DNA of 55,546 nt from a virus. Lineage: Duplodnaviria; Caudoviricetes. The stretch covers positions 1 to 55,546 of the IMG/VR virus record IMGVR_UViG_3300005662_000001; one strand, written 5' to 3'. Positions 41,501 to 55,546 of the stretch are shown here, piece by piece; within the stretch, counting starts at the first letter, position 1; each line of letters opens with the position of its first letter. Both the position numbers and the translations under genes were made by a program. The notes under the pieces are model-generated. The model worked only from the letters and a program-made list of their open reading frames with translations, was not told where the DNA came from and made no database searches.

Positions 41501-42541
41501 CGCGAGGTCGTAGTAGCCCGGCCCTTCGCCCTTCACCTCATACGACCCGCTCTTGCGTCGTTGCACAATCTCTGGTGACCACGGTCTTTGGAAGCGCTCA
41601 GGCTTCTTCTCCTTGAACGCCTTGTGCCAGTCAGGCAAGAATATCTCGGTAGGCGTTGGAATCATGTTGACGTTCATGTCCTTGCCCGTGAGCAGGGTGG
41701 GGAAGCCGGGGTGCAAGTCAGGTCTATACACCGACTCCTTCTCCAGCTTAAACAGGCGTGGACCCGCCGCGAACGTCGGCACATCACCGCCATGTTCAGT
41801 ATGAAGCAGTGACGGTTCCGTCTCACGCTTGAGCGTGTCCGTCGGTTTAAAGATGACACCCTTACCGCTCTTCTCTCCACCCAATGCAACTCCACCCTTG
41901 CTTGGTGGGATGCCTTGACCCATCATCAGGTCAGCCAGCGCGGCTCGTTTCTCAAACGTGTCCGCCTGCCTCCATATCTTGGGGTCACGGATGTTTGCAC
42001 CTTCGCCAAAGTTCAGCGCGAGGTTGTGGTTAATCTTGGCTTCCAACTCTGGTGACAGGTTGCCTTGCTTCATTGACTCAAGGAACTGGCGCTTCAGCTT
42101 ATCGAACACAACAGGGTTGGTCTTGAGTTGGTTAGCGGAACCGAGCATCGTCGTCCACACCGTCTCGTCGTCGGTCAGGTTCTTGAGACGCGCCGCTGTT
42201 CCCTCATCCATCACGCCCCACACCTTGCCAGCGTAGTTGGGGTCAGCCTCACTGATTGCGGAGAACGGAGCGCCACCGATGTTCCCGCCGCCTACACGAG
42301 TGCGGTCAGCCTGCGTGGTGGTGACGCGCTTGACGCCCTTCTCCATCTGTTGACCAAGCGCCTCAGACGCTTTGACTGGGGGTTGAGACTTGATGAGAGC
42401 CGCGCCCTTGCGACCAGCCTCAGCGCGTTGAGCGGCGGTGATTGCCGCAATCGCCTCAGCTTCGTTCTCCCCGTCAGCAAGCAAGCGCTTCGCTATGTTG
42501 AGTCCGCCCTTGATTGCTTTGAGTTGTTTGGGTTCTGCCAT
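38528..42541 (-). CDS. Large modular protein including an SGNH/GDSL hydrolase domain
   Basis: 1337 aa; SGNH blocks LAGASW, IGGQKT, DIGANDI, GFHLN at about 39520-39980; modules separated by xAxGG motifs. Confidence 0.75.
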   Translation of the reverse strand: MAEPKQLKAIKGGLNIAKRLLADGENEAEAIAAITAAQRAEAGRKGAALIKSQPPVKASEALGQQMEKGVKRVTTTQADRTRVGGGNIGGAPFSAISEADPNYAGKVWGVMDEGTAARLKNLTDDETVWTTMLGSANQLKTNPVVFDKLKRQFLESMKQGNLSPELEAKINHNLALNFGEGANIRDPKIWRQADTFEKRAALADLMMGQGIPPSKGGVALGGEKSGKGVIFKPTDTLKRETEPSLLHTEHGGDVPTFAAGPRLFKLEKESVYRPDLHPGFPTLLTGKDMNVNMIPTPTEIFLPDWHKAFKEKKPERFQRPWSPEIVQRRKSGSYEVKGEGPGYYDLALGLEGEGLPSQALHDEYIRHLIREGFKKGGAVDIDAADRRLAQAMAKRMSGGGMAKGGKVDIAAADARLEAAIEARMAKGGEVGFKKIQFMNKGGKLVEGVTTIGKKLLASGEEAPKVDRLSMSYKDVTKRVPEVAEAIEKLNRGEITKAQYNDIVKLYKPVTPYSFVPKPATKDEAVGALRGDAAKERYGKQSEYEPGSKVGLRLDIPAYTGKGVWVNSIHNEKAKKVAYGPTASVKNADLSISQAESKRIALGGAKAPYARIKGDWNPMSDEEAIAKAQEYLNHPEWRQIGMDPERHSYFYDRATMQPITNAEEIIQIGPLVLGKNPKFASIDDFEYANGGYATMLPFADGGKIVKGGLNIARRLFKTTDGYTFKEMPDGRVTNGDMTWDSVKEFKQEMPHAFQQGDELGQRRANMESYNRPDPQNIPADTSKFMPDDAYAQFLRAYNKQNAPKPQLSVVPTEKKARGGLMMAGGGSIQENLKNIQNYSVLDKGATRKPNELGGVVLAGASWMAGDEKTRLAKQLFGEEVTNTAIGGQKTSDVLKQLNEFKGNGGTFAPNTTVVLDIGANDIAQGVDESVIRNNLNEIVSRLGEEGVHVILSGQPEAHSYDEAIKSTTLQMDDLYSDIAANNPNVTLVDAMSGMLNDKSLMDESGFHLNSDEAKLAYLNQFANAYKGMDTANQGFVDTPQQVAQTSYPVDIPQEVAQITQVDKPAERYTPEAQVDFMPAVIDSEPSAGYSYAQQNQGLDNYYNVINDYLAQERTQDEIQAAMEQYGVSQADIDAARDYQPSGGGRFDESYATEAYADGGSAFKTIQWQKPQKFDGGGIASPEETNPFEGSRREPLLTEKDWANIKRNAPEVYEWAKQNVKDEANQLKSARGVKDFALRTGAQYLGGIPDLANLGLMGVDALANTNLSSEKPWFGSEQYIDAMRKAGMIGEHEFPISETIAGILAPAGLIKKGVKKVGNMRPAKEAPKKRRGGLTAMSR

Positions 42542-42543
42542 AG

Positions 42544-43959
42544 TTACACCGCGTAGGGATTGACCCGCTCTTTGCGGGCATAAGCATAGTCATCGTCGTC
42601 ATCATACCGAGGCTCAGGGTTTATGTCGAGGAAGCCCATGTCCTTCATTAACCGAATCGCTTGCGTTGCGCTGTCGACATAGTCGTCGTGCGTCGAGTCA
42701 GGGAATGAGCATATCTGCGACAGGAACCCTTCGCACCAGTCCTTGACGTAGCCCTTGCGCACGCTGGACTCTGGGAGCCAGACACGCCCAGTGGCGAAGA
42801 TGGAGGCGGTGATTTGCAGGCGTTGCATCTTGTCAGCTTTGCCGGGGTTATATCCACGCACAGGCAGGTGAGCCGCACGCAGTTCTTGAATCAGGGAGAT
42901 ACCCGCCGCCTTATCCTCCACGAGTATCAGGTCAGGGCGCTTGGCGTCCTTCCCTTCGCCATAGGAGACGCGCCACTCTTCTAACACCTTGGGCTTGAGC
43001 AGGGGGAACGTCAGGTGTTCAGCCCAGCAGTCAATGAGCAGGACAGACATTGGCCCATCCATCGGCTTGAACACTCCCCACGTTGTCATCGCGGTCGGGT
43101 CGTTGTACTCCTTGTCACTGAAGGCGCAGTCATAGCTTTGGACGATGAACTCAAACTTAGGGAAGGGCTTCTCGGCTGGGTACAGCTTGAACATATCGCG
43201 CCCGACCACCTTGCCGTCTTCGAGGTCGACCAAGAGACCCATCACCTCCTGCTCATACAGCTTGCTACCCTTGTACTGTTCTAGCTGGTTGCGGAAAGAT
43301 GACGCTAGGTTAGCTTCGTTCTCATAGGTGCTGGCGCGGTCAATCACCACGTCGTCACCCTCACGTCCCACCAAGTCGATGATGAGGTCTTTGGGGCGCG
43401 GTGTCGTGGTCACAATGACGCGGGGCTGGTCACCCAGACGCAGACCCATCATCATCATGTCCCACGCCTCACCAGCGCCGAGGTACTGGAAGGCGGCTAA
43501 CTCGTCACACCAAGCGAAGTGGAATTGAGGGCCACGCAAGCGCTCATACGAGTCGCCACTGATGCCACGGATGATGGAGCCATTGGACAGCTTTATCTGG
43601 TGGTCTTGCTTGTTGTAATCGACCACCAACTCTTCGGGGATGCAGGCTAGGAGTCCTGACTGACCCTCGAAGCAAGTGAACTTGATGTCATTGGACGTTG
43701 GAGCCAGCACGAGGCAACGGCTGTTCGGGTTTGTCCATGCCCACCACCACAGCGCCTCAGCGGCGGAGCGGGTCTTGCCTGCGCCTCGCCCTGCCAGCAT
43801 CATCCAGACGGTGTAGTCCTGCTCTAGCGGTGGCGGTATCTGGTAACGGTGGGCGCTGGCTACCCAAGTAGCGTGAGCGATGTATGCAATGCGGTCATGC
43901 TCCGAGCGGGCGTTGAACTCCGCCTGCACGTCTGGGTCTTCAAGAAGTTCTGCAAGCAT
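42544..43959 (-). CDS. terL: Terminase large subunit
   Basis: Walker A GRGAGKT, Walker B AWCDE, TTTP coupling motif, SYDCA and HDDYVDS nuclease residues. Confidence 0.95.
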   Translation of the reverse strand: MLAELLEDPDVQAEFNARSEHDRIAYIAHATWVASAHRYQIPPPLEQDYTVWMMLAGRGAGKTRSAAEALWWWAWTNPNSRCLVLAPTSNDIKFTCFEGQSGLLACIPEELVVDYNKQDHQIKLSNGSIIRGISGDSYERLRGPQFHFAWCDELAAFQYLGAGEAWDMMMMGLRLGDQPRVIVTTTPRPKDLIIDLVGREGDDVVIDRASTYENEANLASSFRNQLEQYKGSKLYEQEVMGLLVDLEDGKVVGRDMFKLYPAEKPFPKFEFIVQSYDCAFSDKEYNDPTAMTTWGVFKPMDGPMSVLLIDCWAEHLTFPLLKPKVLEEWRVSYGEGKDAKRPDLILVEDKAAGISLIQELRAAHLPVRGYNPGKADKMQRLQITASIFATGRVWLPESSVRKGYVKDWCEGFLSQICSFPDSTHDDYVDSATQAIRLMKDMGFLDINPEPRYDDDDDYAYARKERVNPYAV

Positions 43960-44023
43960 AAGTTCTACTCAAGCACGCAAAAAGAAACGTGAAACCCCGC
44001 GTTTTGGGCAATCGATGTAATAC

Positions 44024-44611
44024 TTACCCAGCACGCTTAGTCATCTCCATGTTGCGGATGATGTCAAGGAACTTGTTGGCGTTGGTGTCTTCCGTCTTGA
44101 TGGCGGCTCCACCCTCCACGCCTTCGAGCGCCACACGGTCGCCATACTTGCGGGGCTTCAGCTTCATAGCCGTCCACTTACGCGCCTCTATGCGGTTCTT
44201 CTGCCAAGCGATGTACGTCTGGTCGAGGGAAGTCCGCCCCTCCTTGTCGGTGTACTCAGGGGGCATCTCGTCAGCGATGTCGAGGATTTCGTCAGCGTTG
44301 GTGTCAGCCTGCTCCTCCCGTGCGCGTGCGTATTGCTCCGCAAACAGAGGGTGGCGAATCAACCACTCGTAAACTGTCGACTGCGCTGGGAACACTCCCA
44401 CCGTATCCGCTTTCAATATCTGGCGCAGGCTCATCCCCTCACTGAGCATCATGCATATGAGGTCTGCTGTCTGTTGATTGAACTTTGTCGGGCGTCCTGT
44501 TGGTTTGGGCGCTACAGGCGTCTTTGCAGGCGCGGTGCTACCTTGGGCTTGCTTAGTAGCCTTCGGCGTCTTGGTGGGCTTCTTAGCCCCCTTCTTGATG
44601 GTTTCTGGCAT
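44024..44611 (-). CDS. terS: Terminase small subunit
   Basis: GRPTKF..., GMSLRQI HTH, YARARE, RIEARKW...PRKYGD (Sf6-like); upstream of TerL. Confidence 0.88.
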   Translation of the reverse strand: MPETIKKGAKKPTKTPKATKQAQGSTAPAKTPVAPKPTGRPTKFNQQTADLICMMLSEGMSLRQILKADTVGVFPAQSTVYEWLIRHPLFAEQYARAREEQADTNADEILDIADEMPPEYTDKEGRTSLDQTYIAWQKNRIEARKWTAMKLKPRKYGDRVALEGVEGGAAIKTEDTNANKFLDIIRNMEMTKRAG

Positions 44612-44713
44612 AACCCGTAATCCCCATGTGATTGAACGAATGAATGTAAGTGTATTCGATTCGCTTTGGGTTCGCCAGCAAGATGTTATGTCGGGCTTTA
44701 AACCGACTCGGTT

Positions 44714-44881
44714 CTACTTCGCTTTTGATTCGCTACACAGTCTCTTGACGTATGCGCTGGACTCTTGTTTCATGCAATCCTCCTCGTCCAGTGTGAAGTC
44801 AGGAACCCACATCCAGAACACGAGGAAAGCAATGAACATTATACCAATCACCACCTTCTCAAGCAAGGTCTCTTCTCTCAT
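44714..44881 (-). CDS. Small membrane protein (55 aa, not in ORF track)
   Basis: MREETLLEKVVIGIMFIAFLVFWMW...; GGAGG RBS, ATGA overlap. Confidence 0.65.
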   Translation of the reverse strand: MREETLLEKVVIGIMFIAFLVFWMWVPDFTLDEEDCMKQESSAYVKRLCSESKAK

Positions 44882-45141
44882 TTCACCTCCTCCACAGTCA
44901 CGCGATACTTGCGACCGTTACGGTCTTCCACGTCGATAGTCTTCTTGGTGCTGGCAAAGCCACCAGTCTCAGTCAAATCGTACTTGGGACGGCTCACGCT
45001 GGCAAGCAACTTCTCTGTGTCATTTGCCTTGAGGTTGCCAACGATGGTATGGGCAATGTAGTCACAGTAGACAACGTAGGACTTTGGCAGGTTGTCAAAA
45101 AACTTGTTGACGATGGTGTTCATTGTGTCGAAGTGAGTCAT
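44878..45141 (-). CDS. Hypothetical protein
   Basis: 87 aa from MTHFDTM with AAGGG RBS. Confidence 0.7.
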   Translation of the reverse strand: MTHFDTMNTIVNKFFDNLPKSYVVYCDYIAHTIVGNLKANDTEKLLASVSRPKYDLTETGGFASTKKTIDVEDRNGRKYRVTVEEVK

Positions 45142-45151
45142 GGTGTTCCCC

Positions 45152-45400
45152 TTAGTTGAAGTATTCGGCAATTTCGGATTCGATACGGCTGGTGTCTTTG
45201 TCGGACAGCTTGCGCTCCAGCCAAGGTGCTGGGCGTCCACGGCGGTCGCACACCTCGAACTCAGCCTCGGTGTAACCGCGATAGTCCCAATCGCTGGCGG
45301 CGTGGTACGAGTAAGAGCCACGCACGCTCTCGAAGTGCGTGACACCAATGATGCAGGGGATGCCTGCAACGCGGGATTCAATTTCTGCTATGTATGACAT
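45152..45400 (-). CDS. Hypothetical protein
   Basis: 82 aa, GIPC.I.V...DRRGRPAPWLERK. Confidence 0.7.
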   Translation of the reverse strand: MSYIAEIESRVAGIPCIIGVTHFESVRGSYSYHAASDWDYRGYTEAEFEVCDRRGRPAPWLERKLSDKDTSRIESEIAEYFN

Positions 45401-45428
45401 TTCGCTTTCCTTTCGATTTCGATTCGGT

Positions 45429-45617
45429 TTAAGCGCCCAAGAACTTCACAACCCAACGCTTGGCTTGAGCCAAGGTCTTGAAGTTCTCATAAGCAGAGTC
45501 AGTGCTGGTCTGCGCATATGCGCTGTACTCTGCGCCGTCAAAGTAAACCTCACCGCGAACATCGCCAGAGCCGATGATGTGTGAGCCTAATTTACGAGTC
45601 CATGTTGCGTTTGTCAT
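45429..45617 (-). CDS. Hypothetical protein
   Basis: 62 aa from MTNATW, F.TLAQAK.W C-terminus; AAGGA RBS. Confidence 0.65.
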   Translation of the reverse strand: MTNATWTRKLGSHIIGSGDVRGEVYFDGAEYSAYAQTSTDSAYENFKTLAQAKRWVVKFLGA

Positions 45618-45667
45618 TTCACTGTTCCTTCGCTGTTGTAGCACCGAGAAATTCAGTGCATGGTGTA

Positions 45668-45734
45668 ATTGTAACTTAAACAAAGGGGTGGTCAACCCCC
45701 TTGTGAAAATATTTTTATTAGGACTTTCCCTTAG
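45668..45734 (-). promoter_or_regulatory. Repeated early promoter cassette 1
   Basis: AGGGAAAGTCCTAA, AAATATTTT, TTGACC-16 nt-TACAAT. Confidence 0.7.
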
Positions 45735-46609
45735 AAGCCATAGTTCTCTGCGCAGATGGGGCCAATGCCACGGGCGACGCTATCGCTGTCAGTCAATTGG
45801 CGACCGCAGACTGAGCAAGCGCCGAATTTCATGCCGTAGGCTACAGCGGCTTGCTTAGGGTCGCTGGCGACCGCTGTGATGCGTTCTGAGGCTTCTGTGG
45901 TGCAGTCGCGTGATGTGAAGAGGCGACCGCCCATAACCTTGCCCAAGTACACGCCGTCACCCTTGGACTTGATGTAGATAGCGCCAGCGTTCTTGCTGTT
46001 CTCACCAGCAGGACTGAACACAAAGGTGTCAAGGCGCAACTTGGGGAACTTTACGCCTGCTTGCTTGGCGTTGTTGAATGCCACCTCAATAGCCTCAACG
46101 GATACCACAGGGGCTGTCTCAGCGCGTGTGGCTTGCTCCACAGCACGAGCGGCTTGGCGCTCTGCGTCCTGCACAGTCAAGCGCTGGACGGTTTCCATCT
46201 GGCGCTCTGTGAGGTGACCAAACTTGTTGAGGGCGTCGAGCATGGAGCGGGCGAACTCAAAACGTGGTGCGCTGGCTTCCATCCACGCGGCTTCGGCCGG
46301 GTTGGCTTCTTTCCACTCAGCGGCTTTGTTGGCTTGCGCATCAGCCTTAGCGGCGGCACGCTTTTGTGAAGCCATCTTGGCTTTCATGCGTGTAGCTGGG
46401 CTAGTCTTGAAAGACATCTTGCCCTTGCCCTTGCAGGCAAAGCATTCGCCAGAGCGGACGTTGATGTAACCAAAGGTGAAGCGACCAGTGCCGTTGCACT
46501 TAGGGCAAGCCTGCTCGAAATAAGTCACTTCGTTGGCAGAAGACTTGGCTGGTGCGCCAAAGTCCAAGTCATCTTCCATGTCGCTGAAGGGGTTTGATGC
46601 TGTGTTCAT
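45731..46609 (-). CDS. DUF6011-like zinc-finger protein
   Basis: CPKCNGTG/CFACKGKG N-terminal finger; CSVCGRQLTD..S.ARGIGPICA C-terminus. Confidence 0.8.
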   Translation of the reverse strand: MNTASNPFSDMEDDLDFGAPAKSSANEVTYFEQACPKCNGTGRFTFGYINVRSGECFACKGKGKMSFKTSPATRMKAKMASQKRAAAKADAQANKAAEWKEANPAEAAWMEASAPRFEFARSMLDALNKFGHLTERQMETVQRLTVQDAERQAARAVEQATRAETAPVVSVEAIEVAFNNAKQAGVKFPKLRLDTFVFSPAGENSKNAGAIYIKSKGDGVYLGKVMGGRLFTSRDCTTEASERITAVASDPKQAAVAYGMKFGACSVCGRQLTDSDSVARGIGPICAENYGF

Positions 46610-46653
46610 AATTCGCTCCTAATTCGCTGTTACCTGCTCATTGCAGTGCTGTT

Positions 46654-46717
46654 AGTATAACGCGAAATTAAACGAGTCAACAACTATTTTAAAAATATTT
46701 ATTAGTGGTTTCCCTAA
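46654..46717 (-). promoter_or_regulatory. Repeated early promoter cassette 2
   Basis: TAGGGAAACCACTAA, AAATATTTT, GTTGTTGACTCGTTTAATTT...TATACT. Confidence 0.7.
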
Positions 46718-47373
46718 CCCTCAATTACCCAGCCTGCAAACTCGCCCATACGGAAAAACAGCTTGGCATCCTCCCCCAAGATGGCTGGGTCGATTGGAAC
46801 CTGCACGCCAGCCAAACTCATCTCCTTGGTCAACACGTCTTCTGGCTTCGCGCCCTGCTGTAGCTTGAACTGCATCGTGAGACGCTTCAGGACGGTCGCA
46901 AAGTACCCTTGGTGGTCACAAACCTTGTCCACCACTACTATCACCCCACCCTGCTTGCAATTCGCCCTCACAGAGTCGATTAAGGCTCTTCGCTTGTCGA
47001 TTGGGATGAACATCATTGTCAAAAACAAAATGTGTACATTTGCTGGAGGCACTTCTGTTCTGGTGATGTCTGAGTTCTCAACAACAACACTATGACCTTT
47101 TTTGTTGTATCTCTTTTCTAAAATCTTACACATTGAAGCGCTTTTCTCAATTGCAACAATGTCTGCCATACGCTCATCTGCCAGTGGCAGAAGTTTGCCC
47201 ACCATATTCCCTGTAGAAGCGCCGATGTCCACCACCACGCCATACTCTGGCAAATAGTTGCGGGCGATGTATACCACCGCGTCGGTCACCATGTCGTACC
47301 ACGGCAACTGCTCACGGACATGAGCGTCAAATGTGTTGGCAATCTCTGGCGTGTCAAATGTCCAAGATTTCAT
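46714..47373 (-). CDS. CmoA-like carboxy-SAM synthase / class I SAM-binding protein
   Basis: WTFD, LPWY, DIGASTG, LTMMF, GG...DK, FK..QG motifs parallel E. coli CmoA; start ATG 47373 overlaps the MTase stop. Confidence 0.8.
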   Translation of the reverse strand: MKSWTFDTPEIANTFDAHVREQLPWYDMVTDAVVYIARNYLPEYGVVVDIGASTGNMVGKLLPLADERMADIVAIEKSASMCKILEKRYNKKGHSVVVENSDITRTEVPPANVHILFLTMMFIPIDKRRALIDSVRANCKQGGVIVVVDKVCDHQGYFATVLKRLTMQFKLQQGAKPEDVLTKEMSLAGVQVPIDPAILGEDAKLFFRMGEFAGWVIEG

Positions 47374-48395
47374 AATGGGAACCTCTTTGCAATTTCGTAG
47401 ATGACTGGGATGGTGACGGTGCGACCGCAACGCTCGTAACGCTCTGCATCACTGACCAGCGAACCGTCTTCATAAAATTTAGTGAAGTTGTCGGGCAATC
47501 CTTGCAGGCGCTCACACTCCAATGGCGTTAGGCGGCGCAGGCGCTCACCAACGATGACTCCATGTCTGTCTTGAGCAGTCAACGTGAACGCTGGCTCGTT
47601 GTGGTCTTTGACGCGACGCCCGTTCTGGCGCTTGCTATCGCGGTGAGGCGTCAACACTGGGCGAACCTGCATCACAGCGCCGCGCCCTTGATTGTTTTGA
47701 ATGCCCTTCCAGTAGTGACCGTCAAGCGTTGGAAAAACGTCCTTGAACTGCATCACTTTGCCTGTTACGAAAGGCATGAGAACAGGTCGTTCTGATTCGG
47801 GTTCCCCTCCTCGAATTTCTCCTTGCGTTCCTTTTTCTTTTTCGAGAACATCTTCTGAAACGCAGAGTCCGAGAGGAAATACTTGGGGTCTGGGTTGTCC
47901 TCTAAGATGTCCGACAATGAATACCCGTTCACGGTTTTGCGGGACTCCGAAATTTTGGCTGTTAACAACTTCCCATTGAACGTCGTACCCCAGTTCATCA
48001 AGACTTGAGATGATGACAGCAAAGGTTCTTCCCCCATCGTGGTTGAGGAGTCCCTTGACGTTTTCAAGGAAAATATAAGGTATTCGTTTGTCTCTGAGAA
48101 CGCGACAGATTTCAAAAAAGAGAGTACCGCGAGTATCTTCTGTCGAGAATCCAGAGCGCTTTCCAGCAACGCTGAAAGTCGCGCACGGGAATCCGCCACA
48201 TAGAAGTTCTGCGGCTGGGATGTCGTCGGGTCGAACAGTTCTAATGTCTCTTGGGTCTGGCTGATGTCCGAAGTTCCGCTCATAAATTCTCCTTGGCTTT
48301 TCTAATATTTCGTTTGCCCACACGCACTGGTGTCCCGCCTGCTCAAGCCCCAGACGGAACCCACCAATGCCTGCAAACAACTCAATGAATCTCAT
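47370..48395 (-). CDS. C5 DNA cytosine methyltransferase with variant cofactor pocket
   Basis: Motif I ELFAGIGG, IV GGFPC, VI ENVKG, VIII QNRER, IX RLTPLECERLQG, X CGRTV. Confidence 0.93.
   Translation of the reverse strand: MRFIELFAGIGGFRLGLEQAGHQCVWANEILEKPRRIYERNFGHQPDPRDIRTVRPDDIPAAELLCGGFPCATFSVAGKRSGFSTEDTRGTLFFEICRVLRDKRIPYIFLENVKGLLNHDGGRTFAVIISSLDELGYDVQWEVVNSQNFGVPQNRERVFIVGHLRGQPRPQVFPLGLCVSEDVLEKEKGTQGEIRGGEPESERPVLMPFVTGKVMQFKDVFPTLDGHYWKGIQNNQGRGAVMQVRPVLTPHRDSKRQNGRRVKDHNEPAFTLTAQDRHGVIVGERLRRLTPLECERLQGLPDNFTKFYEDGSLVSDAERYERCGRTVTIPVIYEIAKRFPL
47765..48283 (-). CDS. Nested alternative-frame gene inside the methyltransferase (beta-polypeptide-like)
   Basis: 172 aa, ATG preceded by AAGGAG at 5 nt; contains SLSDILEDNPDPKYFLS. 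Confidence 0.65.
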   Translation of the reverse strand: MSGTSDISQTQETLELFDPTTSQPQNFYVADSRARLSALLESALDSRQKILAVLSFLKSVAFSETNEYLIFSLKTSRDSSTTMGEEPLLSSSQVLMNWGTTFNGKLLTAKISESRKTVNGYSLSDILEDNPDPKYFLSDSAFQKMFSKKKKERKEKFEEGNPNQNDLFSCLS

Positions 48396-48706
48396 TGAGG
48401 CTTACCTTCCATCTTGAGGTGCGCCAGCAACTCAACCAATGCAAACCTGTCGTCTGGGTATTGCTTGATGTAATTCTCAATCTCATGGAGAACGTAGTCA
48501 AAGCCGCTGTTGAATCCCTTGATGTATTCGCTCATAACCGCCTCCGCTTGTGGTCGCTTGCAATCTTTGTGTTGGTCGATGAAATAATCCATTGCGTCAA
48601 TAATGACGTTGATAGGTGCAGGCATAAAAGGCGGAGCCTCTTCTGCGCCGCAGAACTCGCATTTGAACTTGCCGTTCAGGCTGTTAGTGATGACGTGGTC
48701 GCTCAT
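48392..48706 (-). CDS. Hypothetical protein with putative zinc site
   Basis: CEFC...H..C; ATGA overlaps at both ends. Confidence 0.7.
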   Translation of the reverse strand: MSDHVITNSLNGKFKCEFCGAEEAPPFMPAPINVIIDAMDYFIDQHKDCKRPQAEAVMSEYIKGFNSGFDYVLHEIENYIKQYPDDRFALVELLAHLKMEGKPQ

Positions 48707-48888
48707 GCTGTCTCCCTTGCCTCTTTGCGACCGCGCTCAACAAAGTAGCGTGCGTCTGATTGCTCGTCGATGTGTTCTTCTTGAAGCATCTTGCGGATGC
48801 CTTCCGCTACAGCACGCGCCTTGTCGGCGTTGGTTGCCTTCTCGTACCTGTAGCCTGCATTGATGTAATCTGCTTGTGCGTGTTTCAT
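48703..48888 (-). CDS. Hypothetical protein
   Basis: 61 aa, AAGGAG RBS. Confidence 0.7.
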   Translation of the reverse strand: MKHAQADYINAGYRYEKATNADKARAVAEGIRKMLQEEHIDEQSDARYFVERGRKEARETA

Positions 48889-48897
48889 GTTGGCTCC

Positions 48898-49275
48898 TTA
48901 CCAGTTCGCATATTTCTTGAAAGCCTTGGTGTACTCAGCGCGGCTTTTGAACGCTCCATGCTTGATGCAGTGGTGCAGGAAAGCCTTGTCCATAAAAAAG
49001 CCCTGAGCCTTCTCGTCTCCTGACTTGCCCAAGTCTTTGTAGGTCTCGCCGTCGTAGTAGTCACGCAAGACAAACTTGACCTTGTCCCATAGATAGCCAC
49101 CGTCCTCGTTCTCGACCAGTGACTCACCGCCGACGCGCCCGTAGCCGTCATAGGAACCCTCGAACTTGCGACCGTCGGGCAATAGAGCCACGACGTTGTT
49201 GAGGTGCGGAATGCCAAGAGAGTCAACCACCACAGGCAGGTGAGTCTTGGCGCAACATTTTGAAAAGTATCCCAT
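48898..49275 (-). CDS. Hypothetical protein
   Basis: 125 aa MGYFSKCC...YDGYGR. Confidence 0.7.
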   Translation of the reverse strand: MGYFSKCCAKTHLPVVVDSLGIPHLNNVVALLPDGRKFEGSYDGYGRVGGESLVENEDGGYLWDKVKFVLRDYYDGETYKDLGKSGDEKAQGFFMDKAFLHHCIKHGAFKSRAEYTKAFKKYANW

Positions 49276-49290
49276 CGCTTTTCCTTCGCT

Positions 49291-49422
49291 TTAGTTTTTT
49301 ACGTTGAATTCTTGAATGTAAAAATTGCGCAGTTCGTTTTCTTCTGCGCATTTCAATGCCGCTTCGCGTGTGGCGAACACAGCAACCACATCAACCTCTT
49401 CTTTTAAAACATAGACTTTCAT
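49291..49422 (-). CDS. Small hypothetical protein (43 aa)
   Basis: MKVYVL...VAVFATREAA; 3' part of the 134-aa track ORF. Confidence 0.6.
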   Translation of the reverse strand: MKVYVLKEEVDVVAVFATREAALKCAEENELRNFYIQEFNVKN

Positions 49423-49446
49423 AATCGATTCGCTTTCGTTTTGGTT

Positions 49447-49462
49447 AGCCCCCGAAGGGGCT
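49447..49462 (-). other. Intergenic UUCG-tetraloop hairpin
   Basis: AGCCCC-TTCG-GGGGCT with no U-tract. Confidence 0.55.
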
Positions 49463-49468
49463 GGTTGA

Positions 49469-49753
49469 TTAACGTGATGTGACCTTGACGCTAAACACAG
49501 CGGATGTTTTGGTGAACTTGGCGTATGCGTCTGCGCCATGTTCTTTGATGAATGCGTCCTTGTCGAACACAGAGCGGTTGCTCTCAATGTAGGTAGCCTT
49601 GAAGATTGCACCCTCGACAACCTTTGCACCGCCTGCGCTGGCTGATTCTTTGATGCTGTCTTTGATTGCATCGGCTTGCTTAGTGAGGTCAGCAATCTGA
49701 GCCAACAGTGTGCCGAGTGTGTCTACTGATGTGAAGTTGATGTCGTTGTTCAT
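49469..49753 (-). CDS. Hypothetical protein
   Basis: 94 aa with N-terminal coiled coil; first gene after promoter cassette 3. Confidence 0.7.
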   Translation of the reverse strand: MNNDINFTSVDTLGTLLAQIADLTKQADAIKDSIKESASAGGAKVVEGAIFKATYIESNRSVFDKDAFIKEHGADAYAKFTKTSAVFSVKVTSR

Positions 49754-49806
49754 AGTTCGCTTTCGTCTGTTACCTGCCTTGCAACAATTGCTTGGTCAGT
49801 GATGGT

Positions 49807-49870
49807 AGTTTAATGCCAAATTAAACGTGGTCAACAACTTTTTTAAAAATATTTCTAAGGAAAACCCTAA
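49807..49870 (-). promoter_or_regulatory. Repeated early promoter cassette 3
   Basis: TAGGGTTTTCCTTA, AAATATTTT, GTTGTTGACC-16 nt-TAAACT. Confidence 0.7.
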
Positions 49871-49877
49871 TATGTTG

Positions 49878-50615
49878 CTATCCCGCAACAATGTCTTGTT
49901 CCGCCATTTGGCAGAAGATTGAGCATTCAATGTCAGGCTCCTGCGGATAGTTCCCGTCTGTAGGCTTGAGTTCATCAAGGTAGCGGTCTTTGAAAATGGT
50001 CTGCTTCTTGAACCGCTCCAGCTTTGCCATACGGTCAAACTGCTCAGGGAAGTCAACCCGAATCTTGTTCCAGTACCCCATCCCGCCCTTGACGCAACCA
50101 ATGCAGTTGTTGTTGAGGTAGCCCAGCTTGTACATCTGCGGCAACTCAATGCCCGCGTTCTGGAGCATCGCTAGGCAGTCAACCTTGTTCAGCCCCTTTT
50201 CAATCAATGGAACCCACACGTCGACCTCGTTGTTGGCATCAATAAATCGGTCATAACGCTGTTGCTCTTCAGCGGTGTAGCCAAACACTTGACGGTCGCC
50301 GACCTGCTCATAGCGCTCACGCACTTGCTTTTTCAGCACGCGAGTGCATGGAGCCGCGCCCCTGATGTTCATTGCGCTGGTCTTGAACGTCTCGTAAATG
50401 GAACGCTTGTAGTAGTCGTTTCCAAGAATGACAATGTCCTGCCCAAACCACTTCTCGCATTCCGCTAGGAATCGCTTGTTGTCTGAATGCTCCTCCATGA
50501 CTTCGGTGTAGGCAATCACCAATGGCAACTTGCCTGCGTTCTCCGCGATAGCCAGCTTGGTAGCCACGGCACTTGCCGCCCCGCAACTAAACCAGCAAAC
50601 AATTCGTTTTGTCAT
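49878..50615 (-). CDS. PP-loop (PAPS-reductase-like/adenine nucleotide alpha-hydrolase) protein
   Basis: WFSCGAAS PP-loop, APCTR.LK, NNNCIGCVKG, ECSIFC. Confidence 0.8.
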   Translation of the reverse strand: MTKRIVCWFSCGAASAVATKLAIAENAGKLPLVIAYTEVMEEHSDNKRFLAECEKWFGQDIVILGNDYYKRSIYETFKTSAMNIRGAAPCTRVLKKQVRERYEQVGDRQVFGYTAEEQQRYDRFIDANNEVDVWVPLIEKGLNKVDCLAMLQNAGIELPQMYKLGYLNNNCIGCVKGGMGYWNKIRVDFPEQFDRMAKLERFKKQTIFKDRYLDELKPTDGNYPQEPDIECSIFCQMAEQDIVAG

Positions 50616-50902
50616 TCTTCAATTCCCAGTAAAGTTAATGTTTCTTTGAGCAGTTCAGCCTCGTCATACCCGTAGTGCTTCTCGAACCCCTTGGTTCCCA
50701 TCCCGTGCAAGCCCTTAGAGCCTCTGTGATGCTCTGGGCATAGCGGTATGACACTGAAGTGGCTAGAACGCCCCCAGCCCCCCGCTAAACGCCTTGGATG
50801 GTGCAGTTCAGCGGGCGTTCCCTCATACCCCATTCGCCTGCACACAGCGCAACCCAACTCAGCCACCGCGCTCATGTGCTTTTTTTCTTTGAGGGTGGTC
50901 AT
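50612..50902 (-). CDS. Ref-like HNH nuclease
   Basis: GCAVC...ELHH...IPLCPEHH..G.H. Confidence 0.8.
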   Translation of the reverse strand: MTTLKEKKHMSAVAELGCAVCRRMGYEGTPAELHHPRRLAGGWGRSSHFSVIPLCPEHHRGSKGLHGMGTKGFEKHYGYDEAELLKETLTLLGIEE

Positions 50903-51099
50903 TGGCGTGTAGGGATTTGGGCTTGCATGAACTTGATGAACTCTTCATCGGACTCGTCAACGGGTTGCGCATTCTCAAACAGGGTTCCGCTCTCAGCCAT
51001 CTGGTGGATGTCAGCCAGCATCTCTGCTAGTTCCTCTGGCGTTCCATCAAAGTTGTCGAAGCAACCTTCGGCAAAAACAATTTTCAGCTTCTCAGTCAT
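50899..51099 (-). CDS. Acidic hypothetical protein
   Basis: 66 aa FAEGCFDNFDGTPEEL. Confidence 0.7.
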   Translation of the reverse strand: MTEKLKIVFAEGCFDNFDGTPEELAEMLADIHQMAESGTLFENAQPVDESDEEFIKFMQAQIPTRQ

Positions 51100-51242
51100 T
51101 GTTTACCTTTCGTAAAACCTGCGCGGCTTTTTAAATCGTGGCACGTCTGGCATCTCCACTGCGGAGCGCCTCTACTGTTTTTACCTTTTACATCGGCTGG
51201 TCGCAAGCGACACACCTGACACGTTGGCTTCTTGTCAGTCAT
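51096..51242 (-). CDS. Small zinc-finger protein (48 aa, not in ORF track)
   Basis: CQVC...CQTC; AAGGA RBS; ATGA overlap. Confidence 0.65.
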   Translation of the reverse strand: MTDKKPTCQVCRLRPADVKGKNSRGAPQWRCQTCHDLKSRAGFTKGKQ

Positions 51243-51600
51243 TCAATTCCTTTTTAAGTCGCTCATTGCGTGAGCCTGCTTCAAATCCTGCAAGGTATGC
51301 GCGACGCTCTACCCAGTATTGCTCTGGGCGGTGGCTGTGTTCCCACTCGTCAAAAGACTCGACGTTGGTCTTCAACGAAACAATCTGACGCTTGCGCCAG
51401 CCACTTGCCTGCTCACGCTCTATGCGCTCAAACTCTTCGTCTTCTGGTGTAGCCGTCACAATCATCCTCCACATTGAATAAACCATAAAGAATAAACCAG
51501 TGCCAAACAAAACGTGATTGTGGATTACCCAACCATCAGCGAGGCAGACCACCCACGACAAGCCGTGGATGACGCCCCATTGAAAAGAATTAAAACGCAT
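51235..51600 (-). CDS. Membrane protein
   Basis: Two hydrophobic N-terminal segments then a charged domain. Confidence 0.65.
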   Translation of the reverse strand: MRFNSFQWGVIHGLSWVVCLADGWVIHNHVLFGTGLFFMVYSMWRMIVTATPEDEEFERIEREQASGWRKRQIVSLKTNVESFDEWEHSHRPEQYWVERRAYLAGFEAGSRNERLKKELND

Positions 51601-51850
51601 ATCTGTTGGAACAAATAACGTCGATGACCGTCTCAGCGCTGTAGCCGTTGACGTAGCGTTTACCGTATATCACACGGGCGCGTAAGCCAGCCTCTTGGCA
51701 GTCCTTGATAGCGTCAATCTGCTCACCACGACTCAACGGTTGGATGTTTCTGTCCATGATGAGGTTCTGCACAGTGACGTGCGGTTCCTTGTTGGATGAA
51801 CACCCAGCCAATGCGCTTATTGCGCACACTGCAATAAAAATCTTTTTCAT
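51590..51850 (-). CDS. Lipoprotein
   Basis: MKKIFIAVCAISALAGC signal peptide II with LAGC lipobox. Confidence 0.8.
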   Translation of the reverse strand: MKKIFIAVCAISALAGCSSNKEPHVTVQNLIMDRNIQPLSRGEQIDAIKDCQEAGLRARVIYGKRYVNGYSAETVIDVICSNRYAF

Positions 51851-52179
51851 AGCGTTGCCTTTCCTTCTGCTCTGTTATTTGCTTGTTCTGTTCGCCATAT
51901 TTCCACGCGCAATGTCGCCGCCGTGATGTCCCATTTGTACCGCTCCTCAATCAGCACAGCTTCTTTCAATCCTTCAAGTAACTGCACATACTCAGGGTGC
52001 GCGTATGCCTCGCGCTCTTGCGCACCAATCGCAGTCTCCATGCTTCGCTTCATCAAAATTGATTTCAATGATTTGCGATATTCTTCAATGTATGTGCGCT
52101 CTGCCTTAGCCTTGGCAAAGAGCGCGGCGTGCTTGAGGATGTAATCCACTGCCTTATGCGGGTCTCTCTCTTCACTCAT
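51847..52179 (-). CDS. Helical hypothetical protein
   Basis: 110 aa AKAKAER..., AQEREAYA, WRTEQAN.R. Confidence 0.75.
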   Translation of the reverse strand: MSEERDPHKAVDYILKHAALFAKAKAERTYIEEYRKSLKSILMKRSMETAIGAQEREAYAHPEYVQLLEGLKEAVLIEERYKWDITAATLRVEIWRTEQANNRAEGKATL

Positions 52180-52306
52180 AAAACACCTTTCTTTTTGCGC
52201 GATTGCGCTTGATTACCATTGCAACAAAAATTACCAGACAAATCCAGAACATGAATCCTGACATTGCCATGAACGTCCAAAAAAAATCTCCGAATGAATC
52301 AAACAT
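52172..52306 (-). CDS. Small membrane protein (44 aa, not in ORF track)
   Basis: MFDSFGDFFWTFMAMSGFMFWICLVIFVAMVIKRNR; GGAGG RBS. Confidence 0.65.
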   Translation of the reverse strand: MFDSFGDFFWTFMAMSGFMFWICLVIFVAMVIKRNRAKRKVFYE

Positions 52307-52426
52307 TTAATCCCTCCCTTTTTGCTCACAGAGCCAGTAGTACCACGTCAATAAAATAACTGCTCCCCACGCAACAATTCCAGACAACAAAAAAAATAAA
52401 CCAATCACATTTAAAAATGTATCCAT
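52307..52426 (-). CDS. Small membrane protein (39 aa, not in ORF track)
   Basis: MDTFLNVIGLFFLLSGIVAWGAVILLTW; GGAG RBS. Confidence 0.6.
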   Translation of the reverse strand: MDTFLNVIGLFFLLSGIVAWGAVILLTWYYWLCEQKGRD

Positions 52427-52599
52427 CAGTCTCCCCTTTTATTTACGAAGTCCTCGCGCACGTCGAGCATTGCTTGCGCTTGCTCATACGCTTCGTAGGC
52501 AACATCAATCTTTGACTTTGCCACCTTGCTTGGCTTCTGCATCAAAGCCATCAACGCAAACATTGCGTAGATGTCAATCAACTCTGGTTCTGTTTTCAT
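52426..52599 (-). CDS. Small hypothetical protein (57 aa, not in ORF track)
   Basis: D.YAMFALMAL...AY..A.AML pattern; overlaps both neighbours. Confidence 0.65.
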   Translation of the reverse strand: MKTEPELIDIYAMFALMALMQKPSKVAKSKIDVAYEAYEQAQAMLDVREDFVNKRGD

Positions 52600-52712
52600 T
52601 TTTTATCTTTCTCTGCAAGGTATTGCATGACGTGTCCGTGCAATACATCAATCAGTGGTGGCTCCCCTGTGAATAAAAAGTACACCACAACCAATGACAA
52701 AATCCAATTCAT
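52596..52712 (-). CDS. Small membrane protein (38 aa, not in ORF track)
   Basis: MNWILSLVVVYFLFTGEPPLID; ATGA overlaps at both ends. Confidence 0.6.
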   Translation of the reverse strand: MNWILSLVVVYFLFTGEPPLIDVLHGHVMQYLAEKDKK

Positions 52713-53056
52713 AAAATTCCCTCTATGGTTATCTTGACCATACCGCCAACCTCGTCTGCCCAGTACACACGCAGGTCTTCAATCAAAGCGTCATCTTGCA
52801 TAACGCCAGCGTGAGTCATGGAGTCAAGCAAAGCCTTCAGCAAGTTATCCAAATCACGGCGACGACGGTCAGGGCGAAACGCTTGAATCTCCACCTTCAC
52901 CGCGTAGTCGATGTGCTTGGCGGCGCGTTGTATCAGCACTTGGTCAGCAACCGCCTTGCGGTACTCGCGCCCCTTTGCGCTGATGATGGTGCGACCGTTG
53001 AAGTTGCGCCAGTAGGTGTTGACCGTGGGAGGCCAAGGCAATGTAATTTCAATCAT
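52709..53056 (-). CDS. rusA: RusA-family Holliday junction resolvase
   Basis: LPWPPTVNTYWR, PDRRRRDLDNLLKALLD, DD..I. Confidence 0.92.
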   Translation of the reverse strand: MIEITLPWPPTVNTYWRNFNGRTIISAKGREYRKAVADQVLIQRAAKHIDYAVKVEIQAFRPDRRRRDLDNLLKALLDSMTHAGVMQDDALIEDLRVYWADEVGGMVKITIEGIL

Positions 53057-53316
53057 TGGCGTTGCGCTGGCACGCGGTTAAGAATGTCGTTTGCCAACGG
53101 CGAGTTGAAGTTCTCGTCGTCCTCTTTCCCCGCCAGCTTTGCCTCATAAGCAAAAGCCATCTCTGCGCAGGCTTGACGCTCCATAAACATAGCCTGCTTA
53201 GTTGTCTCAATTGCCACTGCCAAAATTTCAGCCTTCGCTTCACTCAACGTTCTGTTGAATTCGTCTTGCGTAAAAAACGCTTGACCCTGCGACAGTAAGT
53301 TTTTTTCAAAGTTCAT
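53053..53316 (-). CDS. Hypothetical protein
   Basis: ERQACA motif; ATGA overlaps at both ends. Confidence 0.7.
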   Translation of the reverse strand: MNFEKNLLSQGQAFFTQDEFNRTLSEAKAEILAVAIETTKQAMFMERQACAEMAFAYEAKLAGKEDDENFNSPLANDILNRVPAQRQ

Positions 53317-53555
53317 TTCCATTCTCCTTCGTTACCTCGGTTACCTTTAGACCATTGCTCTCTAACATCCGCCTCAAGGCGGGACTTGGGGTGAAGTTCG
53401 TTCCACCCTTTGTGACGCTTCCCACGCTCGTCAACGTAACCATTGAACCAGCGGTACGCGCTATCGCGATTTTTAAGGCGCATCTTGATGACCTCCCGAA
53501 CGAGACAACGGTGACGATGCTCATCTTCTCCTTCGCCCTCCTTGCCATAATTCAA
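53313..53555 (-). CDS. Hypothetical protein
   Basis: EHRHRCLVR...QWSKGNRG..GEW; follows the helicase. Confidence 0.7.
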   Translation of the reverse strand: MNYGKEGEGEDEHRHRCLVREVIKMRLKNRDSAYRWFNGYVDERGKRHKGWNELHPKSRLEADVREQWSKGNRGNEGEWK

Positions 53556-54553
53556 AACCCTCCTCCGTTGTCAAATGACATCGGCATTGAATCGTGATGC
53601 TCAACAAACTGCTGACTGTCTTTGTGATACCAAAGCGAGTACCAGTCCTCAGCTTCACCGTTGCGTTGCTTCTCGCACATTAGATAGGCGTCTGGAATCA
53701 TTACATCAACCACGCCGTTTTGTGCATCATGTTCTTTTTTCTTATTGCGCCACACCATTAGGACGTTGTCCACTTGGTCGCTGATTGAGCCTGAACCTTT
53801 GATGTCATTCTTGTTTGGCTTCACCTCTTCGCTTTGCAACTTGCGTATGTGGTGAATGAGGTGAACATGGACATTGTGGTCACGCGCCAGAGATGTCAAC
53901 TCATCCACAAAAGACTTCTGAGCGTTGTAGTCGTCCTCGCCAGACACGCACTTCATCAACGAGTCAATGAAAATGTGTTGCACGCCCAACTCAACTGCGC
54001 TGTAGCGAGACACCGCAATTACCTGCTGTGCGGTCACAGTACCCTGCTGGTCATACAGCCAAAGGTAGTCGCAGGCGTAACCCCTCATGCGGTCAAACAG
54101 GTTTGTGAGGTAGCGGTTCTTGTCGAAATAGCGTGGCGCATCAATGTTCTCGCCTGCAAACTGGCGAAGCATACGAAATAACGTCCGCTTAGGTTTCATC
54201 TCAAACGAAGCAATCATCACCTTTTGCTTTTGCTTGATAAGCCCCAAGGCAATCATGCCCGTAACCATGCTCTTGCCTCCACCGTTGCCACCAGCGTAAA
54301 GCGTCACCTCACCAGCGCGGTACTGAAAGCCTTGGTGAGTCTTAGACCACGGCATAGTCTGGTAGTTGTCCACCACTGGGTTTGCAAGTTCGTCTTGAAG
54401 TTCATCCAAAAACTCGTTTGCTTGCTTGACCTTCTGCGCAACGTCATTGGCTTTAAGGTATTTTTCAAAGTCCACCTCGTCTGGTTTGACGATACGGATT
54501 TTCCGAGCCGCGTCTAATTCCTGCGCTCTTTTTTGTATGTCAGACATTTGCAT
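53552..54553 (-). CDS. SF4 (DnaB/T7 gp4-like) DNA helicase
   Basis: Walker A GGNGGGKS, SFEM, HIFIDSL, HLIHH.RK, IKGSGSI, KQRNG. Confidence 0.9.
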   Translation of the reverse strand: MQMSDIQKRAQELDAARKIRIVKPDEVDFEKYLKANDVAQKVKQANEFLDELQDELANPVVDNYQTMPWSKTHQGFQYRAGEVTLYAGGNGGGKSMVTGMIALGLIKQKQKVMIASFEMKPKRTLFRMLRQFAGENIDAPRYFDKNRYLTNLFDRMRGYACDYLWLYDQQGTVTAQQVIAVSRYSAVELGVQHIFIDSLMKCVSGEDDYNAQKSFVDELTSLARDHNVHVHLIHHIRKLQSEEVKPNKNDIKGSGSISDQVDNVLMVWRNKKKEHDAQNGVVDVMIPDAYLMCEKQRNGEAEDWYSLWYHKDSQQFVEHHDSMPMSFDNGGGF

Positions 54554-54974
54554 ATTTCATTGCCTCTTCAATTCGCTGTTGTGATAATTTCATTCGCTCT
54601 CTGTCGCCTTCGCTCAACTTCTTACCTTGGCTCATGTCGTAAGCGCAGATGGATACCACCAAAGCCTCAAACGAAATGATGCGCATCAAGTCGCTGGCGT
54701 AGAACGCAGGCTTCATGCTCTTCTTGCCTTCGACTGGGTACTCGCGGCGCTTGTCGTCAGGCGGGAACAAGTCGGTCATGTCCATGCCCAGCGCCTGCAC
54801 TACGTTCAAGGTCTCGCAACCCGCAAAGCAGTGAAGCAACACGCGACCGTCTTCCGTCTCACGGATTGCCAGTGATGGGCCTTTGTCATTGTGGGCAGGA
54901 CAGCACGCAGTCCAAGAGCCATTGCGACCCTTGACCTTAGTCAGCATACCCAGCATACGCTCGACAGGCGTCAT
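54540..54974 (-). CDS. Primase zinc-binding-domain protein (no TOPRIM)
   Basis: ACCPAHND..PSL...LLHCFAGC; start ATG 54974 overlaps the upstream stop. Confidence 0.8.
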   Translation of the reverse strand: MTPVERMLGMLTKVKGRNGSWTACCPAHNDKGPSLAIRETEDGRVLLHCFAGCETLNVVQALGMDMTDLFPPDDKRREYPVEGKKSMKPAFYASDLMRIISFEALVVSICAYDMSQGKKLSEGDRERMKLSQQRIEEAMKYANV

Positions 54975-55546
54975 ATGACCCTCCGACCCACGGCTGGCGT
55001 GCCTGCATCGTCTTCCCATCGACGTTGGTTGATGTACGTCAGCGGTGCTGGCTCAAACCCGCCAGTCCATTGGTCAGTCACCTTGAGAATGTTGACTTGG
55101 GAGATGATGGTCTCCGCCACAGAGTCAAGCCCAGCCTTCGCCCACTTCTTCTGGCACTCTGCTTTTGCGACCTTGCGTTTGGAGGCAGGCCAAGCATTCC
55201 AGAACTCGTCGAATTTCGACGATGTATTTATATTCTTATTCTGTATCTGTATCTTCTTAGGGTTATCTTTCGCTTTCGATTCGGTTTTCGATTCGGTTTT
55301 TGACGGTCTCCCGCCTCGCTTTCCGAGTTGTCGATTATTTTCAACTTGATGTTGATACTTAGTAACTTCGACATGGCAACGATTGTTAAAATACCCTGTT
55401 TCGGTACGTTCAAAGAATTCATCCAAAACCGATTCGGTTATGTCTAAATCAAGGCGAATCTTCCTTGCAACCGATTCGGTATCAAGTGGGATTTCCTTCT
55501 CGCTCATGTAGTAAAGGTCAAGCAGGCGTCGGTACGCCAAGTCCTC
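54971..55546 (-). CDS. 3' part of YdaU/DUF1376-family replication initiator (starts at 183)
   Basis: AYRRLLDLYY, G.RGGRP, FDEFWNAWP, P.TYINQRRWED. Confidence 0.85.
   Translation of the reverse strand, partial: EDLAYRRLLDLYYMSEKEIPLDTESVARKIRLDLDITESVLDEFFERTETGYFNNRCHVEVTKYQHQVENNRQLGKRGGRPSKTESKTESKAKDNPKKIQIQNKNINTSSKFDEFWNAWPASKRKVAKAECQKKWAKAGLDSVAETIISQVNILKVTDQWTGGFEPAPLTYINQRRWEDDAGTPAVGRRVI
55267..55300. repeat. Tandem iteron-like repeats in the initiator gene
   Basis: TTTCGATTCGGT twice in tandem, encoding KTESKTES. Confidence 0.6.
55427..55546. repeat. Terminal 120-bp direct repeat, right copy
   Basis: Identical to 1-120. Confidence 0.95.

Follow-up and report, generated by a model that had tools for sequence, protein, structure and literature searches.

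Within the window, i.e., the whole stretch of 55,546 nucleotides of viral DNA that was analysed, a C5 cytosine (carboxy)methyltransferase gene (here called alpha) encloses a second reading frame (beta) and is followed by a gene for a CmoA-like protein. A preliminary description, made from the sequence alone, had reported a same-strand ORF of 172 codons inside the methyltransferase but in another frame, with AAGGAG placed 5 nt before its ATG and spelled in the main frame by adjacent AGG AGA arginine codons. These features are all present, and their positions are collected in Table 1.

Table 1. Features of the nested methyltransferase locus (window coordinates).
Feature	Coordinates	Strand	Basis
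alpha gene, C5 cytosine (carboxy)methyltransferase, 341 codons	47370..48395	-	PF00145, TIGR00675, and M.HhaI matches
beta, nested +1-frame ORF, 172 aa, over alpha residues 38-210	47765..48283	-	ORF listing, phrog_16143, selection tests
Shine-Dalgarno AAGGAG, 5 nt ahead of the beta ATG	48289..48294	-	sequence reading
strongest dual-coded stretch: beta SLSDILEDNPDPKYFLS over alpha FIVGHLRGQPRPQVFPLG	47870..47920	-	synonymous-site, conservation, and complex-model data
CmoA-like gene (carboxy-SAM synthase homologue)	46714..47373	-	TIGR00740, phrog_4752

The starts of alpha and beta lie 112 nt apart, and the inner frame is therefore +1 with respect to the main one. Along the minus strand, AAGGAG (48294..48289) is followed by AATTT and then by the ATG (48283..48281); alpha reads the same site as CCA AGG AGA, i.e., Pro34-Arg35-Arg36. 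The segment of the product that had been singled out earlier, SLSDILEDNPDPKYFLS, occupies beta residues 122-138, and the end of the product reads ...SLSDILEDNPDPKYFLSDSAFQKMF....

Alpha matches PF00145 (E 1.5e-79, residues 1-338) and TIGR00675 (E 2.8e-83), and its closest solved relative is M.HhaI (E 5.4e-52), with whose motifs IX-X its residues 278-336 align. Motifs I (FAGIGG), IV (GFPCA), VI (ENV), VIII (QNRER), IX, and X are present, and the departures from the usual pattern are PCA rather than PCQ in motif IV and GR rather than GN in motif X. The first of these falls at alpha residue 72 (window 48183-48185), where GGFPCATFS has Ala for the usual Gln; the Streptococcus clade has PCQ.

Coding constraint in the inner frame

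Is the inner frame a gene, or an accident of the outer one? The homologue set consists of 80 viral-contig loci picked by main-frame patterns only (FLENVKG, DELGYDV), since picking by beta-frame patterns would be biased; one truncated locus (L138) was left out, so that 79 are evaluable. Stops in the inner frame of close homologues had been named in the preliminary description as a finding that would count against its proposal, and none was found: in 79 of 79 loci the +1 frame is free of stops over a core that begins at motif IV, ends at KYFLS and measures 105-108 codons. Read in the +2 frame, the same core contains 5-13 stops per locus, and the outgroup, the single-chain methyltransferase of Klebsiella phage KP27, has 5 in its +1 frame between motif IV and motif VIII.

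When the synonymous codons of the window gene are permuted, which holds the main protein and its codon usage constant, the 172-codon +1 frame is open in 0.99% of 20,000 trials (0.0099), with a mean of 3.6 stops. Because of this low frequency and of the intact frame in every evaluable homologue, the inner ORF goes beyond chance. The same permutation, applied to the core in 17 sequences with mutual alpha identity below 70%, gave probabilities of 0-0.03 each, whose log10 values sum to about -50, a joint figure that overstates independence because the lineages are related.

The third codon positions carry a further signal. At identical alpha residues, third-position identity is 0.40-0.41 outside the overlap, 0.50-0.57 inside it over alpha residues 38-158, and 0.93 at alpha residues 159-176, the 18 codons that also spell SLSDILE..KYFLS in beta; the expectation corrected for amino-acid composition is 0.39-0.41 throughout, and 0.39 at that key stretch. 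Mann-Whitney p values for synonymous-site conservation are 2.8e-8 and 2.8e-11. At the protein level, beta amino-acid identity is 0.446, compared with 0.320 (sd 0.004, max 0.331) in 300 shuffles that preserve alpha. Much of the similarity of beta between lineages is forced by the conservation of alpha, and alpha residues 159-176 form the only segment in which beta is better conserved (0.65) than alpha (0.56).

Could such constraint act on the nucleic acid, as an RNA structure or a DNA site, or be a by-product of the conserved main frame, with no translation of the inner one? The low score of beta in a protein-language-model recognition test (1756, below 2300) would fit this explanation. We nevertheless regard it as very improbable, given that the core is free of stops in 17 diverged lineages with a joint null probability near 1e-50, that the identity of beta exceeds that of every alpha-preserving shuffle, and that the variants of the key segment (LSDILE, LSEILE, LSEVLE, LSQILE) are conservative at the protein level. 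The nested ORF is very probably real and under purifying selection.

A megablast search of window positions 40000-55546 against 50,697 phage records returned a single match, of 180 nt (47898-48076, 84% identity), to Streptococcus phages. It lies inside the overlap, and this DNA-level similarity is a by-product of the double coding constraint.

As for the start of the inner frame, a beta-frame ATG upstream of motif IV is found in 74 of 76 sequences, and in 59 of the 76 it is accompanied by a Shine-Dalgarno-like word under a loose four-letter definition. In the clade of the window, i.e., the 55 sequences with alpha identity of 60% or more, the beta ATG occupies the same position in 48 members; the Shine-Dalgarno-like word precedes it in only 29 of the 55 and is often spelled AGG AGN. 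The start position in the Streptococcus clade differs from that in the clade of the window.

These starts bear on another possible route to the beta sequence, a programmed frameshift in which ribosomes coming from the alpha start change to the +1 frame on the way, so that the product is a hybrid and not a separate beta. Three database proteins (P0058, P0063, and P0155) do have motif I at the start and beta-frame sequence after it, the switch in P0063 occurring at a run of lysine codons. Against the thousands of clusters, however, three hybrids are a small number and may reflect sequencing errors, and no conserved slippery site was seen. Moreover, slippage would need only the downstream part of the frame, yet more than 100 upstream codons are open, and this upstream part has an ATG of its own in nearly all sequences, for the most part at one position in the clade of the window. 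A frameshift origin is thus given very little weight.

To our knowledge, few phage or bacterial cases of long genes overlapping on the same strand have solid evolutionary support, and such genes are dropped by annotation pipelines. The evidence for the nested beta is unusually clean for such a case.

Relatives of the nested protein

The nested layout is already known, from Streptococcus annotations and from one proven analogue, but it is neglected. Over residues 26-144, beta matches phrog_16143 ('DNA methyltransferase') with E 1.8e-29, and its alignment with orf14 of Streptococcus phage MM1 has 54% identity over 123 aa (E 1e-33). The GenBank record names this orf14 'C5 methyltransferase beta subunit', nested in orf13, the 'alpha subunit'. 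The same nested pair occurs in the S. thermophilus phage P0091. PMC5601072 terms the 'apparent total overlap' in the S. thermophilus 5093-group phages striking and cites prior notices for MM1 (Obregon 2003) and for Tn5252 (Sampath and Vijayakumar 1998).

As in MM1 and the 5093 group, the beta of the window lies in the +1 frame of an HhaI-like gene, over motifs IV-VIII. The settings differ: MM1, the 5093 group, and Tn5252 are Firmicutes elements with Asn in motif X, whereas the clade of the window is uncultured and has Arg at this point and a CmoA neighbour. In addition, the beta of the window has 172 aa and starts further upstream, while the Streptococcus type has about 140 aa. A literature search found no functional test of any nested beta of the phrog_16143/MM1 type.

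This is a large family: a search with a profile built from 18 beta sequences retrieves, among clusters formed at 50% identity, 3469 with E<=0.001 and 562 with E<=1e-30. Among isolated phages, 110 records contain a beta-like frame, and 93 of them are from Streptococcus; the other hosts include Lactococcus and Enterococcus, together with a Methanobacterium virus and an Arthrobacter phage, and no Synechococcus phage is among the 110. Most of these records annotate one gene only at the nested site. In the archaeal Methanobacterium virus Drs3 (MH674343.1, hit H138), the beta-like frame has 43% identity to beta (E 4e-8), and the gene lying over it is annotated as hypothetical.

Beta matched no family in Pfam or NCBIfam, nor did nine beta-type proteins even at E<=10; a profile of 94 beta sequences gave 0 matches to PDB sequences at E<=10, Foldseek found none for the beta model at E<=0.001, and the ESM Atlas gave no usable match.

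The proven analogue is M.EcoHK31I of E. coli HK31 (Lee, Kam and Shaw 1995, as reported in PMC2836561), in which beta lies wholly inside the alpha gene, on the same strand and in another frame. According to PMC2836561, EcoHK31I alpha has motifs I-VIII and X together with the recognition domain, motif IX comes from beta, and silencing the beta starts by changes synonymous in alpha abolishes activity, which beta supplied in trans restores. The preliminary description drew its analogy from this enzyme. The gene layout bears it out, the beta ORF of the window being likewise entirely within alpha on the same strand and in another frame; the division of labour does not, because the alpha of the window keeps both motifs IX and X, as its alignment with M.HhaI indicates, and its beta carries instead a segment that belongs after motif VIII. 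The pair is therefore not a strict analogue of M.EcoHK31I, as alpha retains motif IX.

A second kind of two-gene arrangement is that of split C5-methyltransferases, such as those of actinophages and the enzymes of the M.AquI type. In the Mycobacterium phage Cerulean (gp81/gp80; L243 1535-2281), the methyltransferase is split and a +1 ORF carries the recognition domain and motifs IX-X. The open frame of this ORF extends 162 nt ahead of the annotated start (1697), and about 61 of its codons lie over the end of the N-terminal half; the start annotated for the second gene may be placed too late. In Cerulean, as in the window, the coding region for motifs VII-VIII of the first chain already has an open +1 frame; there, however, alpha ends after motif VIII, whereas the window has a complete alpha, and its beta extends about 34 codons beyond KYFLS. 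Compared as profiles, beta and the Cerulean +1 ORF show a weak relationship (hhalign probability 11%).

Five proteins (P0103, P0105, P0165, P0206, and P0141) prompted the idea that, as a rule, the recognition domain and motifs IX-X are encoded by a continuation of the beta frame. This was rejected: in 219 classifiable loci, drawn from three locus sets with some common contigs (23 more were unclassifiable by motif patterns), the run-on layout occurs in 2 and the layout of the window in 216. The single clean run-on case is L163 1416-2322, an intermediate form. Its main frame ends once motif VIII has been read (242 aa), and one ORF of 249 aa in the beta frame covers the recognition domain and motifs IX-X; the locus represents either a genuine split enzyme or a single-base indel.

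Might beta then be a relic, still translated but dispensable, of a split ancestor with its N-terminal half in frame 0 and its C-terminal half in +1, as in the actinophage methyltransferases? The overlap in Cerulean and the arrangement in L163 speak for such an origin. A dispensable frame should decay, though, and this one is intact in every evaluable locus and reaches 0.93 synonymous-site identity at its key segment; the rarity of the run-on layout likewise tells against a relic, which we consider quite unlikely.

Alpha and beta as probable partner chains

What does beta do? The preliminary description regarded its conserved segment as one usually found in C5-methyltransferases after motif VIII and absent from the main frame here. 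The absence holds, in that the alphas of the clade have no conserved equivalent after VFP. For the usual position the backing is indirect and comes from three fusion proteins and from KP27. In the three (P0103, P0165, and P0206), whose beta frame runs into a C-terminal half, the Pfam C5-methyltransferase model aligns from positions 180-183, at or just ahead of the beta segment. In the KP27 methyltransferase, VGDILEPDNDQYTISDRAWKGF stands in frame directly after motif VIII and FSFP, and this stretch (DILE..Y.IS) aligns with beta residues 123-156 at 38% identity over 34 aa (E 0.010, for a single pair). On account of the fusion proteins, of KP27, and of the missing equivalent in alpha, the sequences suggest that the beta segment is the counterpart of an element that single-chain enzymes carry in cis after motif VIII. 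Beta alone does not match PF00145 even at E<=10, and a word search of long proteins with beta residues 113-160 gave 1 match among 13 candidates.

Two other long database proteins show beta-like regions in different surroundings. In P0153 the region comes after an N6/N4 DNA methylase domain and a stretch resembling motif I; in P0141 a weak radical-SAM-like region and a C5-methyltransferase C-terminus come after it.

Structure prediction gives a largely extended or helical model for beta on its own, with low confidence (mean pLDDT 64.9, pTM 0.30) except at residues 120-160, which are confident. AlphaFold places the recognition region of alpha alone (residues 181-269) below pLDDT 50 and so gives no view of a missing element. 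Modelling of the heterodimer, a check proposed in the preliminary description, was run with custom alignments (35 rows for alpha, 94 for beta) and predicted binding, with ipSAE values of 0.82, 0.84, and 0.69 against 0.00 for the best of 3 controls; the mark set for this score is reached by 58 of 80 solved complexes and by 2 of 110 mismatched pairs. The runs have at least 30% of their contacts in common, and the partner pLDDT is 45-63. In the model, beta residues 91-102 pair with the alpha strand 138-145, and beta residues 119-137 (SLSDILE..KYFLS) pack on alpha residues 284-297, i.e., motif IX, and on alpha residues 171-179. The prediction supports binding of alpha and beta, although the pass may lean partly on the likeness of the C-terminal segment of beta to the cis element of solved single-chain enzymes.

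A mechanism can be proposed along these lines. Ribosomes would start at the internal ATG (48283), aided by the AAGGAG written into two rare arginine codons of alpha, and would make a separate beta of 172 residues. This protein would have little fold of its own and would dock on alpha in two ways: one segment would pair as an extra strand with the strand at the edge of the catalytic domain (alpha 138-145), and the conserved LSDILE..KYFLS turn, with the helix that follows it, would sit on the motif IX helix (alpha 284-297) and on alpha 171-179. In this way beta would contribute in trans what single-chain C5-methyltransferases have in cis between motif VIII and the target-recognition domain, and the working enzyme would be an alpha/beta heterodimer.

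The two-chain enzyme, as had been proposed from the sequence, is the best reading because the inner frame is selected and because the complex prediction supports binding; these two results stand on its side, and overall the proposal is partly supported. We infer both translation from the ATG at 48283 and a need for beta in activity. A role as the partner chain of alpha is probable and is the best-supported mechanism for beta, and to the whole explanation, in which a translated beta docks on alpha to form a heterodimeric enzyme, we assign a probability of roughly 0.6. Alpha could be active alone, since it has the full motif set I-X. Both M.HhaI and SpCmoX, the solved enzymes closest to it, consist of a single chain.

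The complete alpha also leaves room for beta to be a real protein with another job, such as a regulator or inhibitor of alpha, an anti-defence factor, or some other accessory factor using the gene space. The signals of selection tell that the frame matters, not what for, and beta alone is largely unstructured, while alpha carries all ten motifs. Set against this are the occurrence of beta only inside the methyltransferase clade, where it travels with the methyltransferase from Firmicutes phages to the environmental clade, the resemblance of its best-conserved part to a structural segment of single-chain methyltransferases, and its predicted docking on motif IX. We consider another job unlikely, if somewhat less so than the other alternatives discussed above.

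Should activity require beta as the partner chain, many phage 'orphan methyltransferases' would be wrongly annotated as enzymes of one chain, and alpha expressed from recoded genes, in which beta is destroyed, would fail.

The CmoA-like neighbour and the probable cofactor of alpha

The gene directly downstream of alpha, whose ATG overlaps the alpha stop (ATGA), has TIGR00740 CmoA as its best NCBIfam match (E 2e-17), at 63.7 bits, below the curated 193.3, and matches phrog_4752 with E 4.1e-45. Its presence follows the residue in motif X of alpha, where Gly324-Arg325 aligns with the Gly-Asn of M.HhaI (Asn-304). Counted over loci L003-L082, 5 of which are unclassified, a CmoA-like gene lies downstream of alpha in 49 of 50 loci of the Arg type, the exception having only 149 nt of flank, and in 0 of 25 loci of the Asn type.

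An enzyme with these two features has been described. According to PMC12783734, SpCmoX of Synechococcus phage S-B43 (PDB 8YF3) is a DNA cytosine C5-carboxymethyltransferase that is a monomer and active alone; its Arg-350, at the position of HhaI Asn-304, binds the carboxyl of Cx-SAM (carboxy-SAM), which a phage CmoA makes, and an SPPC motif was used there to define 5,615 CmoX candidates. Alpha is like SpCmoX in having Arg at the Asn-304 position and a CmoA homologue adjoining, and unlike it in having GGFPCA (GFPC) instead of SPPC; its match to 8YF3 (E 1e-16) is also far weaker than that to M.HhaI. Because of Arg325 and of the CmoA-like gene downstream, alpha is, judging from these sequence features, probably a DNA carboxymethyltransferase of the CmoX type, in a GFPC lineage rather than the published SPPC one.

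Such a carboxymethyltransferase, dependent on Cx-SAM and probably outside the SPPC criterion, would widen the basis of phage 5-carboxymethylcytosine, and the window would add a probable carboxymethyltransferase context to the known nested layout. Beta occurs in both the Arg-type and the Asn-type clades and is therefore independent of the choice of cofactor. That SpCmoX is monomeric and active alone calls for caution against assuming that beta is essential.

A bolder reading joins all of these elements: a natural two-chain C5-carboxymethyltransferase, HhaI-like, with an Asn-to-Arg cofactor switch separate from that of the SPPC CmoX enzymes, working as an obligate heterodimer, and with a gene overprinted in the +1 frame of the catalytic core that is ancient and obligatory across thousands of phage methyltransferase genes annotated as single. 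This combination is tentative, and we hold it to be on the doubtful side.

The neighbourhood contains one more gene of possible note. A 245-aa protein without a Pfam match, encoded at window 49878-50615 on the minus strand, 1.5 kb upstream of the methyltransferase/CmoA pair, matches phrog_424 ('phosphoadenosine phosphosulfate reductase') with E 8.7e-46.
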